Assembly (NCBI GenBank): GCA_963736855.1
Contig: CAVTQK010000009.1
Span: 542,285 to 606,284 of the forward strand
Direction of reading: 5' to 3'
Length of the DNA: 64,000 bases
Origin: an uncultured delta proteobacterium
GTDB taxonomy: Bacteria > Desulfobacterota > Desulfobacteria > Desulfobacterales > UBA2156
Shown here: one piece after another, positions 5,124 to 63,376 of the stretch
How positions within the stretch are numbered: the stretch's first letter is position 1
Layout of the letters: each line of letters starts with the position of its first letter
Notes under the pieces: model-generated
What the model saw: only the letters and a program-made list of their open reading frames with translations
Databases searched by the model: none
Told to the model about the DNA's origin: nothing
Translations under genes and position numbers: made by a program

Positions 5124-5145
5124 TTTTTTTAAAAGCGACAATCTT

Positions 5146-5336
5146 GATGGCTTCGTAAAAAGATTTTGTGAGCGCCATTCAAGTCTTTTCGGAAAAAGAG
5201 AGGCAAAAGGGTTGAGCGTTAAAAATCTCAAGCTGTTTGAGGAACTTATGCCGAGTTCTTGAGATTTAGCAAAACCCTTTGGATCTTCCGAAAAGACTTG
5301 CGGCGCGAGAAAAATCGACCTTTTTACGATTTCATC
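5146..5336 (-). mobile_element. MITE-like element, subtype B copy 1 (191 bp), flanked by 6-bp direct repeat AATCTT
   Basis: Reverse complement of 19785-19974. Ends are GATGGCTTCGTAAAAAG ... CTTTTTACGATTTCATC. AATCTT occurs at 5140-5145 and 5337-5342. Confidence 0.8.
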
Positions 5337-5378
5337 AATCTTGATGTGTGGTGGCCTTTCAAGATCGAACATTGATAT

Positions 5379-17284: not shown

Positions 17285-17386
17285 CAAAGATGCGTCATGA
17301 GCTGAAGCCAACCCGGGTGCTCACGGCGACCTTTAAGAAAAGTGCGGTGTGGAATTGCAGTAAAAGTTTGCGAAACCGTCAATGAT

Positions 17387-17539
17387 GACGAAATCGTAAA
17401 AACTCAAAATTAGGATGGCAAAGTAAAAAGCTTCAGATGCAAGGCGCGCAAATCCTGAGGAATGAGGCGTACATATGGGTACGCCGCAATGACGAAGGAT
17501 GCAGTGCAACGCAGCAGATGGACTTTTTACGAAGTCATC
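17387..17539 (+). mobile_element. MITE-like element, subtype A copy 1 (153 bp), 6-bp direct repeat AATGAT
   Basis: GACGAAATCGTAAAAA ... TTTTTACGAAGTCATC. AATGAT at 17381-17386 and 17540-17545. Near-identical to 19626-19778. Confidence 0.85.
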
Positions 17540-17632
17540 AATGATGTTTCACGTGAAACAATCGTGAAGGATGCTTAGGCATTGCGGCGTCTCCTTCAAG
17601 CTTGAGGAGCCGCCGGATGGGAGACAGATCGA

Positions 17633-18305
17633 ATGAATTTTGATTTTTCACCTTTTTTTAAGAAGTATGAGGCCTTGCTGGTCGTTGTGGATGCCACTTT
17701 CGATCGTATCAAAAAGGAATATCCGAACGCGGTGACCTGCACTCTTAAATGTGCCGATTGTTGCCACGCGGTTTTCGACGTGCCTCTGGTAGAAGCGCTG
17801 TATCTGAACAAACAGTTCAACCTGCGGTTTCAGGGAAAAGAACGGGAGCAGATCCTGGAAAAAGCGAACCGGGCGGATCGCAAGGCATTTCAGATCAAAA
17901 AAAAGGCCGTCATGGACCGAGAGGCAGGCAAAACGGAAACGGAAATTCTGGTAGAGATGGCTGCCGAAAGGCATCCGTTGTCCCCTTTTGAACAAGGAGG
18001 ACACTTGTGACCTGTATGATTTTCGGCCCACGACCTGTCGCCTGTACGGGCTTCCCACGGCCATTGGCGGAGTGAGTCATACATGCGGCCGCTCCGGCTT
18101 CTATGAGGGGAAGATCTATCCCACAATAAATATGGATGTGATTCACCGAAAGCTGTTCGAACTGTCGGAAGAAATCGCCCGGGCGATCCGAACCCGATAC
18201 CCTAAACTCCACGAGATGTTGGTTCCCCTTTCCATGGCCCTGTTGACCGATTATAATGAGGAATATCTCGGGGTTCCTGCTATAGCGCCTGAGGAGAAAG
18301 CATAA
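17633..18305 (+). CDS. YkgJ-family (UPF0153, CxxCxxCC) Fe/Zn cysteine-cluster protein; one frameshift near 17965-17972
   Basis: ORF 17633-18010 (CTLKCADCCHAVFDVP) and ORF 17988-18305 join as ...IRCPLLNKEDTCDLYDFRPTTCRLYG when the frame changes in the gaaagg run. Confidence 0.75.
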
Positions 18306-18316
18306 GGAAAAGAAGG

Positions 18317-18661
18317 ATGACCCAAGAATCAGAGGATGAGGAAAGAAGAAAACGGGCCATTTTTGAAGGTATGTCGGAAAAACGCCGTCGACATATCCTT
18401 AAAAAGGGGTATGAGAAGTGGGATCCTTTTTTAGAGCCCAAGGATCCCATCGAGATTCGAAAAGACCGAACCCAAAGGACCACCATCACGCTCGTCAGGG
18501 AATTTTTGCAGACGAAATCCTCTGAGGAATACTCCAATGCATATGGACAGGGTGTCCTGGAAATAGCCCTTGGAATTGTCAACGGAGATGAACGGTTTAA
18601 GGGCATGTTCGAATTTTCCTGCTGGTATCGGGACCTTCTGGAAAAAGAGGGTCTTTACTAG
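18317..18661 (+). CDS. hypothetical protein (114 aa, charged N-terminus)
   Basis: Clean ORF in the same orientation, tightly spaced with its neighbours. No family recognised. Confidence 0.5.
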   Translation: MTQESEDEERRKRAIFEGMSEKRRRHILKKGYEKWDPFLEPKDPIEIRKDRTQRTTITLVREFLQTKSSEEYSNAYGQGVLEIALGIVNGDERFKGMFEFSCWYRDLLEKEGLY

Positions 18662-18665
18662 CGAC

Positions 18666-19517
18666 GTGAAAAGGACGAACGACGATCCGACAGAGGTGCA
18701 CGGGCTTGCGAAGCAGCGGATATGGGATCTTATCTCGCATTCCCCAAAACGATTGACACAGGCCTACCTGGAAAGAAGGCTGAAATCTCGTGACCGTATA
18801 GAGAGCAGGGTCGTCCGAAGCGCCGTGCGGGAACTCGTCGCCCAAGGCAGGATTCAATATAGCTATCGACTGGGGTGTTCTTTCCTGGAGCAATCCATCC
18901 AAGGGGTCTTGCGCGTTTCCGAGCATCTCGTTTTAAAACCTCCTCAAATCTCTTATTTCCCCGGACCCTATGAGGTCGTGGTTGCTCTTGCGCCGGGAAG
19001 CGCCTTTGGTTTGGGGGACCATGCCTCGACCCGATTGGCTCTCAAGGGTATTGAAATGGCAATACGGTTCAATCCTGGACTGCAATGGCGTCAAGGGGCG
19101 CACATGTTGGACATCGGAACCGGCAGCGGAGTCTTAATGATTGCCGCCGTGCTGCTGGGTCTGGAAGGCGCCATCGGTACCGACACGGATTCCTCTTCCA
19201 GATACGAGGCGAGGGAGAACGCCAGAATTAACAGCGTGGAGGACAGGGTCGAAGTGACGGACAAACCGGTAGCGGCCCAAACCGGACCCTTCGCACTAGT
19301 GGCGGCCAACCTCCGCTTCCCGACGCTTAGGTCACTGGCCGCTCGAATGCAATCCCTGACGGATCTTGGCGGAGCGGTGGTCATCTCCGGGATCCGGGAA
19401 TGGGAGTTGGAAGATCTCGTGAACATCTATCATTGCGCCTCCTTTTCTACGATTTGGAGGGGATGCGATCAGGGATGGTGGGGAGCGCTGTTTGCCAATA
19501 GAACGGGAGCAAAATGA
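18666..19517 (+). CDS. ribosomal protein L11 methyltransferase (PrmA)-like SAM-dependent methyltransferase
   Basis: GSAFGLGDHASTRLAL and LDIGTGSGVLMIAA motifs. GTG 18666 chosen so the gene does not overlap the upstream ORF (the ORF track starts at 18570). Confidence 0.75.
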   Translation: MKRTNDDPTEVHGLAKQRIWDLISHSPKRLTQAYLERRLKSRDRIESRVVRSAVRELVAQGRIQYSYRLGCSFLEQSIQGVLRVSEHLVLKPPQISYFPGPYEVVVALAPGSAFGLGDHASTRLALKGIEMAIRFNPGLQWRQGAHMLDIGTGSGVLMIAAVLLGLEGAIGTDTDSSSRYEARENARINSVEDRVEVTDKPVAAQTGPFALVAANLRFPTLRSLAARMQSLTDLGGAVVISGIREWELEDLVNIYHCASFSTIWRGCDQGWWGALFANRTGAK

Positions 19518-19625
19518 GGGGATTCGGGTATCTGAGGGCGCGTTTTCATAAGTCGCTTTATGATCGGAAGTTGCTGTTGGGGGAAGCCTTGCTCAAGGCC
19601 CGTATCATCACGCTCAGCCAATTGA

Positions 19626-19778
19626 GACGAAATCGTAAAAACTCAAAATTAGGATGGCAAAGTAAAAAGCTTCAGATGCAAGGCGCGCAAATCCTGAGGA
19701 ATGAGACGTACATGTGGGTACGCCGCAATGACGAAGTATGCAGTGCAACACAGCAGATGGACTTTTTACGAAGCCATC
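19626..19778 (+). mobile_element. MITE-like element, subtype A copy 2 (153 bp)
   Basis: Flanked by AATTGA (19620-19625) and AATTGT (19779-19784). Near-identical to 17387-17539. Confidence 0.85.
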
Positions 19779-19784
19779 AATTGT

Positions 19785-19974
19785 GATGAAATCGTAAAAA
19801 GGCTGATTTTTCTCGCGCCGCAAGTCTTTTCGGAAGATCCAAAGGGTTTCGCTAAATCTCAAGAACTCGGCACAAGTGCCTCAAACAGCTTGAGATATTT
19901 AACGCTCAACCCCTTGCCTCTCTTTTTCCGAAAAGACTTAAATGGCGCTCACAAAACCTTGTTACGAAGCCATC
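19785..19974 (+). mobile_element. MITE-like element, subtype B copy 2 (190 bp)
   Basis: GATGAAATCGTAAAAAGG ... GTTACGAAGCCATC, flanked by AATTGT (19779-19784 and 19975-19980). Reverse complement of 5146-5336. Confidence 0.85.
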
Positions 19975-20208
19975 AATTGTAAAAGGCGCTCGAAATGCAG
20001 GGCTTACCGGAAAAAAGCTCGGTGAAGTCCTCGTCCAGGAAGGGAACGCTACCGAAAAGGATATCATGAGGACCATCGAAACACACTTCGGGATCCGTAT
20101 GACTTCCCTTTCATGGAACATTTATGATCCAAGCCTTGTTTCAGAACAGGAGGCGCATCATGACATTTCAAGCGGAGATAACGAGCCTTTTGAGGGGGAA
20201 GAAAGCCG

Positions 20209-20301
20209 TGGCGGAGAGACCGGGATTCGAACCCGGGATACCCCTTTCGGAATATACTCGCTTAGCAGGCGAGCGCCTTCGACCAACTCGGCCATCTCTC
20301 C
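20209..20301 (-). tRNA. tRNA-Ser (anticodon GCU), CCA encoded
   Basis: Reverse complement is GGAGAGATGGCCGAGTTGGTCGAAGGCGCTCGCCTGCTAAGCGAG...long variable arm...CCGGGTTCGAATCCCGGTCTCTCCGCCA. Anticodon loop CUGCUAA. Confidence 0.93.
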
Positions 20302-20358: not shown

Positions 20359-20444
20359 TGGCGGAGGGAGTAGGATTCGAACCCACGGAGCTTTCGCTCA
20401 ACGGTTTTCAAGACCGTCGCCTTAAACCACTCGGCCATCCCTCC
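20359..20444 (-). tRNA. tRNA-Ser (anticodon UGA), CCA encoded
   Basis: Reverse complement is GGAGGGATGGCCGAGTGGTTTAAGGCGACGGTCTTGAAAACCGT...GTGGGTTCGAATCCTACTCCCTCCGCCA. Anticodon loop CUUGAAA. Confidence 0.93.
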
Positions 20445-63069: not shown

Positions 63070-63184
63070 CTATGCTGATATAATCAGAGGATACTGTTCG
63101 GCATTCGGCCATTTCCCGCACAACTGAGGATGAATCGGCATGACCCATTACATTTTCACGACCTAATCCAATCCTATCATAGTT

Positions 63185-63337
63185 GATGGCTTCATAAAAA
63201 GTCCAATTTCCGCGTTGCGCTTCATCCCGTTGCGATTTCGACGTACGATAAGTACGCCTCATCACACGGGATTCGCGACGCCTTGAACTTGAACTTTTTA
63301 CTTTGCCATCTGATTTTCGACTTTTTACGAGTTTGTC
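63185..63337 (-). mobile_element. MITE-like element, subtype A copy 3 (153 bp, more diverged), 6-bp direct repeat ATAGTT
   Basis: GATGGCTTCATAAAAAG ... CTTTTTACGAGTTTGTC. ATAGTT at 63179-63184 and 63338-63343. Confidence 0.75.
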
Positions 63338-63376
63338 ATAGTTACGCACAAGGTACAAAACAGGGGAATGGTCAAT

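Follow-up and report, generated by a model that had tools for sequence, protein, structure and literature searches.

The 64-kb stretch of DNA analysed here (the window, corresponding to positions 542285-606284 of contig C9 in a 3.9-Mb assembly of 25 contigs) carries five short repeats with two kinds of internal sequence, and the question it raises is what these repeats are and what has moved them. The first-pass annotation had read them as a MITE-like family, with five copies each lying between 6-bp direct repeats, and both the copies and their flanking repeats were recovered (Table 1). Searching the window against itself recovered the A pair at 95% identity; for the two B copies, which are inverted relative to each other, the figure was 93-95%, and for the diverged A copy in inverted orientation it was 73-80%. 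No sixth copy could be detected within the 64 kb. The 16-nt terminus pattern matched 10 times in the window, as compared to a mean of 1.6 and a maximum of 4 in 100 shuffles. The internal hairpin that had been ascribed to type A was likewise present.

Table 1. Coordinates of the repeats and of their internal features in the window.
Feature	Position	Strand	Remarks
Type B1 MITE copy, 191 bp, inverted	5146-5336	-	AATCTT (+ strand) at 5140-5145 and 5337-5342
Type A1 MITE copy, 153 bp	17387-17539	+	Duplication AATGAT at 17381-17386 and 17540-17545
Internal pseudo-terminus of type A (GGATGGCAAAGTAAAAAG)	17413-17430	+	Preceded by target-like TCAAAATTAG
Central hairpin of type A, GGCGTAC-ATATGG-GTACGCC	17466-17485	+	Helix 6 of the conserved fold
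Type A1 MITE copy, 153 bp, first of tandem pair	19626-19778	+	AATTGA at 19620-19625 on the left, AATTGT on the right
Hexamer AATTGT common to both tandem elements	19779-19784	no strand	Between the A1 and B1 copies
Type B1 MITE copy, 190 bp, near end-to-end hairpin	19785-19974	+	AATTGT on both sides, again at 19975-19980
Type A2-subfamily MITE copy, 153 bp, inverted	63185-63337	-	ATAGTT (+ strand) at 63179-63184 and 63338-63343

The 153-bp and 190-bp units were searched against the whole genome by blastn, giving 165 hits. A census using four representatives as queries, in which each copy covers at least 85% of a unit, yielded 129 non-overlapping near-full copies genome-wide, distributed among four subfamilies termed A1 (58 copies), A2 (31), B1 (24) and B2 (16). 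Identity inside each subfamily is mostly 94-99%, and A1 and A2, like B1 and B2, are about 78% alike; the four subfamilies are young. The copy at 63185, previously described as an inverted and more diverged A element, is indeed inverted but is not simply a diverged A: the 31 A2 copies are mostly 95-99% identical to it, and it is an ordinary member of this separate subfamily rather than a decayed A1, with termini GACAAACTCGTAAAAA and TTTTTATGAAGCCATC. Four elements of 63 bp are internal deletions of B in which positions 1-37 are joined to positions 162-190.

Types A (153 bp) and B (190 bp) have unrelated cores and share only imperfect terminal inverted repeats of about 19 nt, the left one reading GATGAAATCGTAAAAA(C/G)TC and the right one, as its reverse complement, GATGGCTTCGTAAAAAGTC. 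The commonest termini in the genome are GATGAAATCGTAAAAA, found 75 times, and GATGGCTTCGTAAAAA, found 103 times. These inverted repeats, 16-19 nt long with 13/16 positions matching, are kept over the 129 copies. The end consensus derived earlier from the window is only approximate, the B copy at 19785 terminating in TTGTTACGAAGCCATC. Both types are non-coding: frame-shifting indels between subfamilies exclude a conserved ORF, and a coding role for type A, which is open in one frame per strand, was rejected on the grounds that these indels disrupt its frames.

Tabulated over the genome, the 6-bp duplication was exact in 54 of the 104 paired copies (those whose two termini pair at ≤200 bp), with 9 more matching over 7 bp and many others being one base off. 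At least 30 different hexamers are duplicated, the length being fixed and the sequence differing from copy to copy. Copies throughout the genome keep the same termini and the same 6-bp duplication, which bears out the reading of the repeats as MITEs. From the 54 reconstructed sites the target consensus is TC-AANNTT-GA, a 10-bp palindrome in which the hexamer is duplicated: its four specified bases are A in 53/54, A in 44/54, T in 43/54 and T in 50/54 sites, and it is preceded by T (35/54) and C (29/54) and followed by G (23/54) and A (35/54). The preference for targets starting with AA, inferred initially from the window copies alone, is correct as far as it goes but represents only a part of this palindrome.

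Filled and empty versions of the same site could be compared directly. At C5:8976-9128 an A1 copy lies between two AAAATT hexamers, and the strain-variant contig C14 exhibits the same flanks with a single AAAATT and no element. Contigs C5, C10, C11 and C14 are mutually 95-98% identical over 4-8 kb, and the assembly therefore contains strain variants or large recent duplications. In a sister species (G005), about 92% identical over the window region, a single AATTG(C) occupies the site of the A and B tandem, the site at 19626 being empty. The A1 insertion at 17387 is common to both genomes; within its ortholog on contig C19 of G005 there is an additional insert of about 55 bp, palindromic in sequence (TTTACCCGGTTGAATCCTGCGAAGCAGGGCCGCAAAGCGGCATTCAACCGGGCAGG) and resembling yet another small element of mobile or hairpin type. 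For 21 further insertion sites the joined flanks were searched in G005, a site being scored as empty when a single unbroken match, or co-linear matches that kept the spacing equal, ran across it, and as filled when the match was split by an element-sized insert or when a contig break fell inside the element. Nine sites were empty, 5 filled and 7 uninformative. Among the A2 sites 5 of 6 were empty, and copies of subfamily A2 were also found in G005. Since 9 of the 14 informative sites are empty in G005, and since G005 possesses copies of its own, both lineages gained copies after their split. Element boundaries, the 6-bp duplication, the target motif, filled and empty sites and post-split insertions are all demonstrated for this family. 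In a separate observation, about 45 nt of the right flank of the B1 copy at C24:128983-129172 match at least 14 places in G005 with 90-100% identity; this stretch is another short repeat family.

The filled and empty pairs bear on a quite different explanation, that of structured repeats of REP or terminator type, which recombination or a RAYT-type enzyme would have spread and which would be neither cut-and-paste nor copy-in transposons. Single strands of both types fold well (B into a near end-to-end hairpin of -36.7 kcal/mol with z = -5.6, A more weakly with z = -2.9), the copies are nearly all intergenic, and the genome holds no transposase for them, all of which would suit such repeats. 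However, REP and BIME sequences are characterised by having no target duplication and by an association with a RAYT (Y1) transposase, whereas the 6-bp duplications observed here are consistent while differing from site to site, the empty sites carry exactly one hexamer, a full-length insertion sequence (IS) has the same ends (see below) and neither element matches the terminator pattern. REP-like repeats lacking a target duplication were the case that the first-pass annotation had named as fatal to its own interpretation; this case is excluded, since duplications are present, and the explanation as a whole, already refuted by the filled and empty pairs, deserves next to no credence.

The elements start with GA and end with TC, which are the very bases flanking the preferred hexamer, and therefore both junctions again read TC-AANNTT-GA after insertion. 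A target rebuilt at both junctions would be expected to give tandem pairs having one hexamer in common, and use of an outer terminus together with the far end of the neighbouring element would give composite elements. Among the 129 copies, at least 8 neighbouring pairs have nothing but the hexamer between them. Clean-ended tandem pairs display the same hexamer three times, as in AATTTT-B1-AATTTT-A1-AATTTT on C23, and the AATTGT between the two tandem elements of the window is a duplicated target that was struck a second time. As to composites, A1 contains a near-target, TC AAAATT AG, at its positions 18-27, and at four places the first 19 nt of A1 followed by AAAATT stand directly before a complete A2, B1 or B2. 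The two cases that were checked have duplications of their own (AAGGAT(T) for C23:37146-37323 and AAGTTT for C15:690961-691175); nested insertion followed by use of the outer ends therefore creates new members of the family. Type A may itself have arisen likewise from a core of about 126 bp, as is suggested by its internal pseudo-terminus (GATGGCAAAGTAAAAAG), whose partner in the consensus fold is the right end of the element. The family is a clean case of a target site regenerated by the element, yielding tandem arrays and new composites.

As had been observed, no autonomous partner lies in the window, and the same holds for the whole assembly. A transposase gene bounded by the same termini, with the same duplication length and target, was found in related genomes. 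A search of 41 of these for the Pfam domain DDE_Tnp_1_6 gave 30 loci, and four genomes carry a transposase gene enclosed by GAT(G/A)nnnnCG(T/C)AAAAA termini about 1.9 kb apart; two of these bounded copies have exact 6-bp duplications (AATTTT and AAGACT), and one IS copy is adjoined by a shared AATTTT and then by an A-like MITE. The partner transposases form one clade with 45-56% mutual identity. Scanning one genome per species gave 209 relatives, of which 80 were kept. Their hosts are mostly of Desulfobacterales type (among them Desulfosarcina widdelii PP31, Desulfatitalea, Desulfamplus, Desulfobacula and Desulfatiglandales), and a few come from MAGs bearing the label of another phylum. Termini of the form GATGnnnTCGTAAAAA enclose the gene at 1857-1925 bp in 69 of the 80 loci, an exact 6-bp duplication is found in 34 of the 65 distinct IS copies with both flanks, and the target profile, (T,C)AANNTT(G,A), is the same as that of the MITEs. 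The termini GATGnnnTCGTAAAAAGTC are common to the MITEs and to the partner IS; in Desulfatitalea the IS copies terminate in GATGAAATCGTAAAAA and GATGGCCTCGTAAAAA, one base off the MITE ends, and MITE-IS-MITE arrays occur with one identical hexamer between the elements. In sequence the IS and the MITEs have about 19 nt per end in common and nothing beyond, and the MITEs are therefore not deletion derivatives of these IS copies. In structure the repeats are MITEs in every respect, the autonomous element with the same termini and duplication being represented by the 65 distinct IS copies in related genomes; an autonomous partner in the same genome, which is usual though not obligatory, is absent from the 25-contig assembly, in which plasmids or repeats are possibly missing.

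The partner IS resembles the IS1182 family in its length of about 1.9 kb, its terminal inverted repeats, its single ORF (575-597 aa) and the domain order of its product, DUF772 at the N-terminus and DDE_Tnp_1_6 at the C-terminus, both above the Pfam gathering scores in three representatives. IS1182 (NF033551) is also its best NCBIfam family, with a nearly full alignment to positions 33-487 of 488 (E 2e-44 to 9e-48); the difference lies in the score, 152-163 bits as against a curated cut-off of 270. The D. widdelii copy (WP_155302773.1) is named by NCBI 'transposase' or 'hypothetical protein', and the nearest annotated plasmid relatives of the partner are IS1182-family transposases with 26-27% identity. 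Using BLASTP, we could not detect significant similarity between the partner clade and an IS1182-family transposase encoded on contig C15 of the window genome. Given the score below the cut-off, the generic names and the lack of BLASTP similarity to the C15 transposase, the partner constitutes a distant, apparently unnamed clade.

We consider it highly probable that the five repeats belong to a non-autonomous DDE transposon (MITE) family mobilised in trans by a divergent IS1182-like transposase. The transposase of the 1.9-kb element, a DDE enzyme as predicted from its domains, would move the A and B copies in trans, inserting them at TC-AANNTT-GA with duplication of the central six bases. As no homologue is found in the assembly, the IS1182-like clade would act from outside the assembled genome, and its source could be a plasmid, a phage, an unbinned or unassembled replicon, or a copy since lost. 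The partner transposase was absent from the window genome by tblastn (four partner queries, E ≤ 1e-3), and a profile search found it neither there nor in 11 other genomes of the same family, several of which carry dozens of MITE copies; by profile search the clade occurs in 7 of the 29 other families of the order. Poor assembly is not an obvious excuse, since the IS appears as contig-end pieces in fragmented assemblies of other families (many such pieces of the multicopy IS were seen in G037), and no IS pieces were found at contig ends in the same-family assemblies. The puzzle is one of insertions younger than the species split in a family where the matching transposase was not found.

Two kinds of concealed partner were looked for in the window genome and rejected. 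The 409 terminus-like sites (≤3 mismatches in 16) were paired, and neither the 12 pairs lying 200-6000 bp apart nor the unpaired termini with new inner sequence, all of which were inspected, flank a transposase gene. Repeats of at least 400 bp detected by self-megablast corresponded to tuf duplicates, an IS91-like piece, an integrase, the strain-variant contigs and ordinary genes. Fragments of IS91-like transposases lie at contig ends (C9:682316-683017, with relatives at the ends of C24 and C19). No relatives of the partner transposase were found in IMG/VR, and one A-like element, 74% identical to A1 and with an exact right end (GGACTTTTTACGAAGCCATC), is present in two predicted viral contigs (UViG_3300037043_000420 and UViG_3300037044_000223).

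With the partner clade found in neither the genome nor its family and most of the tested insertions nonetheless younger than the split from the sister species, another transposase might be held responsible, for example that of the resident IS1182-family element on C15 if it cross-recognised the MITE ends. This element is intact, its 518-aa transposase scores 262.8 bits against NF033551, and its inverted repeats (GAGTCTGTAGAAAAAG) have the GA start and an AAAAAG motif in common with the MITEs. Only about 10 of 17 positions match, however, its junctions are GTT with no 6-bp AANNTT duplication, its protein is unrelated by BLASTP to the partner clade, and MITE-like termini enclose none of the transposase genes of this genome at up to 3 mismatches in 16, whereas the partner clade agrees with the MITEs in three independent properties, namely termini, duplication length and target motif. 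The C15 element was rejected as the partner on account of its different repeats, its junction and its protein, and mobilisation by any transposase other than the IS1182-like clade found in related bacteria appears very unlikely. It is to be noted that directly after the C15 element (C15:3773-5854) and a GTT there comes a MITE-like element of 218 bp whose repeats are the same; the two are a second, separate IS and MITE pair in this genome.

Several known families invite comparison. The Correia elements (CREE/NEMIS) of Neisseria, MITE-like repeats of 100-155 bp that abound between genes, form several subtypes, are structured and co-transcribed with neighbouring genes, and occur in host genomes without a transposase; to our knowledge, no autonomous partner is known for them anywhere. 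The present family is likewise intergenic, divided into subtypes and hosted by a genome without its transposase, but its partner has been identified in related taxa. Correia elements have a 2-bp duplication, TA, and 26-nt repeats of unrelated sequence, whereas the duplication observed here is 6 bp of the form AANNTT. RUP of Streptococcus pneumoniae and similar MITEs are mobilised in trans by a resident IS, for RUP an IS630-family element of its own genome with a TA duplication; the likeness lies in their being non-autonomous, with several subtypes and with only ends and duplication in common with the IS. The closest precedent is that of the ISMac2-related MITEs of 160 and 169 bp in Methanosarcina acetivorans, which are derived from the IS1182 family (PMC3852290). 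These too are short, non-coding and multicopy, with terminal inverted repeats matching an IS1182-family IS, but they are archaeal, with repeats of 25-26 nt, duplications of 4 or 0 bp and a partner in the same genome (PMC3852290). The present family is bacterial, has a 6-bp duplication and a palindromic target (TCAANNTTGA), combines several unrelated cores with one pair of ends, and has its partner in neither the host genome nor the host family as far as these were searched. With IS1182-derived MITEs already on record (PMC3852290), it is a genuine yet ordinary kind of MITE with a few unusual habits, and its interest lies in the regenerated target, the conserved type A fold and the family-wide absence of the transposase despite accumulating copies. 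A literature search returned no description of MITEs of Desulfobacter-type bacteria or of the partner IS clade.

The fold of type A was analysed on an alignment of 28 A copies from 13 genomes; the window genome supplied 12 copies and 12 further genomes of the order the remaining 16, each of which has an AANNTT-type duplication of its own. The RNAalifold consensus comprises 34 pairs, and 96.6% of the cells are paired, a proportion that falls to 33-46% if the partners are shifted by 1-3 columns. Changes on both sides were found in 8 pairs, versus 3.5 +/- 1.2 in shuffles (a count of 8 being attained in 1 of 500), and in 22 cells, versus 6.3 (0 of 500), counts that come from related sequences and thus from non-independent events, with the structure derived from the same sequences. 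This compensatory signal is concentrated in a 5-bp helix, ATCCT/AGGAT, in which one pair is U-A in 18 copies and C-G in 10, and in the central hairpin. By our own count the fold contains 69 G-U pairs versus 11 A-C mismatches, an excess that points to the top strand, with 5' end GATGAAATCG, and unpaired stretches such as GCGCAACGCAG are nearly invariant. Between co-directional genes A1 lies 27 times in sense and 8 times in antisense, a bias absent in A2 (11:9) and B (12:15). From family to family within the order, type A keeps 80-92% identity, compared with about 72% for orthologous genes within the genus and with the 45-56% of the partner transposases.

These features would be accommodated if the 126-nt core of type A were a selected, strand-specific structured module, either RNA when co-transcribed or single-stranded DNA, hitch-hiking on transposon ends, with a possible role in stabilising transcripts, in processing or in protein binding. 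The pairing, the compensatory changes, the G-U excess, the near-invariant unpaired stretches, the sense bias of A1 and a conservation across families exceeding that of within-genus orthologs and of the partner transposases all speak for such a module. Yet the compensatory counts have the dependence just described, the orientation count relies on a home-made ORF model and finds A2 unbiased, no Rfam match was obtained over 17300-20100 even at E ≤ 1 (window-wide, only two tRNAs reach the gathering score), and the horizontal spread of a successful master copy could also give the identity across families. Selection on the core is to our mind a real though doubtful possibility. The data on conservation, fold and orientation are compatible with horizontal spread of a master copy as well as with selection on a single-stranded fold, and, given the relatedness of the sequences and the crudeness of the gene model, we keep a function of type A beyond mobility as a minority reading. 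No terminator-like site was found inside the elements, and a strong promoter was rejected, the only promoter-like match (9 of 12) being one that points outward from the left end of A. The fuller proposition, that the type A core is selected, strand-specific, order-wide and better conserved than its transposase, and transposes on borrowed ends in lineages without that transposase, seems distinctly unlikely; if true, it would imply that the transposase is supplied in trans from a plasmid or phage, and if the type A fold proved functional, sulfate-reducing bacteria would have in it a mobile regulatory module.

Whatever moves them, the copies are very unevenly placed. Genes were called with a home-made codon-usage ORF model (3317 genes, 81% coding), and 125 of 128 copies lie outside called genes, compared with 25-34% of the target-like sites of the genome being intergenic; insertions into genes are therefore selected out or avoided. 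The claim that all copies are intergenic nearly holds genome-wide, an exception of a kind being the tandem pair 19626-19974, which has taken the place of the 3' portion of a small ORF whose start is at 19514: this ORF enters the A copy, and its final 54 codons or so are element sequence. Past the tandem insertion, at about 20000-20110, the DNA resembles a second repeat of the T2SSE_N/MshEN type; beyond the empty tandem site G005 has a different sequence. Two tRNA genes (20212-20301 and 20362-20444, minus strand) lie just downstream of the tandem.

The expectation that the repeats generate spurious ORFs liable to be reported as hypothetical proteins was confirmed. A 58-aa ORF at 17336-17509 (minus strand) matches 30 public predicted proteins of 53-94 aa, which are translations of type A and several of which are named 'hypothetical protein'. 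About 130 genomic copies seed spurious 'hypothetical proteins', displace promoters and occasionally truncate genes, and with the family described and its consensus ends available, annotators could mask them. A last observation concerns the DNA adjoining the A1 copy at 17387, where a 14-bp palindrome at 17546-17559 (GTTTCACGTGAAAC) is kept in G005 and reads GTTCCACGTGGAAC in G002; the symmetric double change in G002 preserves the palindrome, as expected of a putative site for a dimeric regulator upstream of the gene at 17633.
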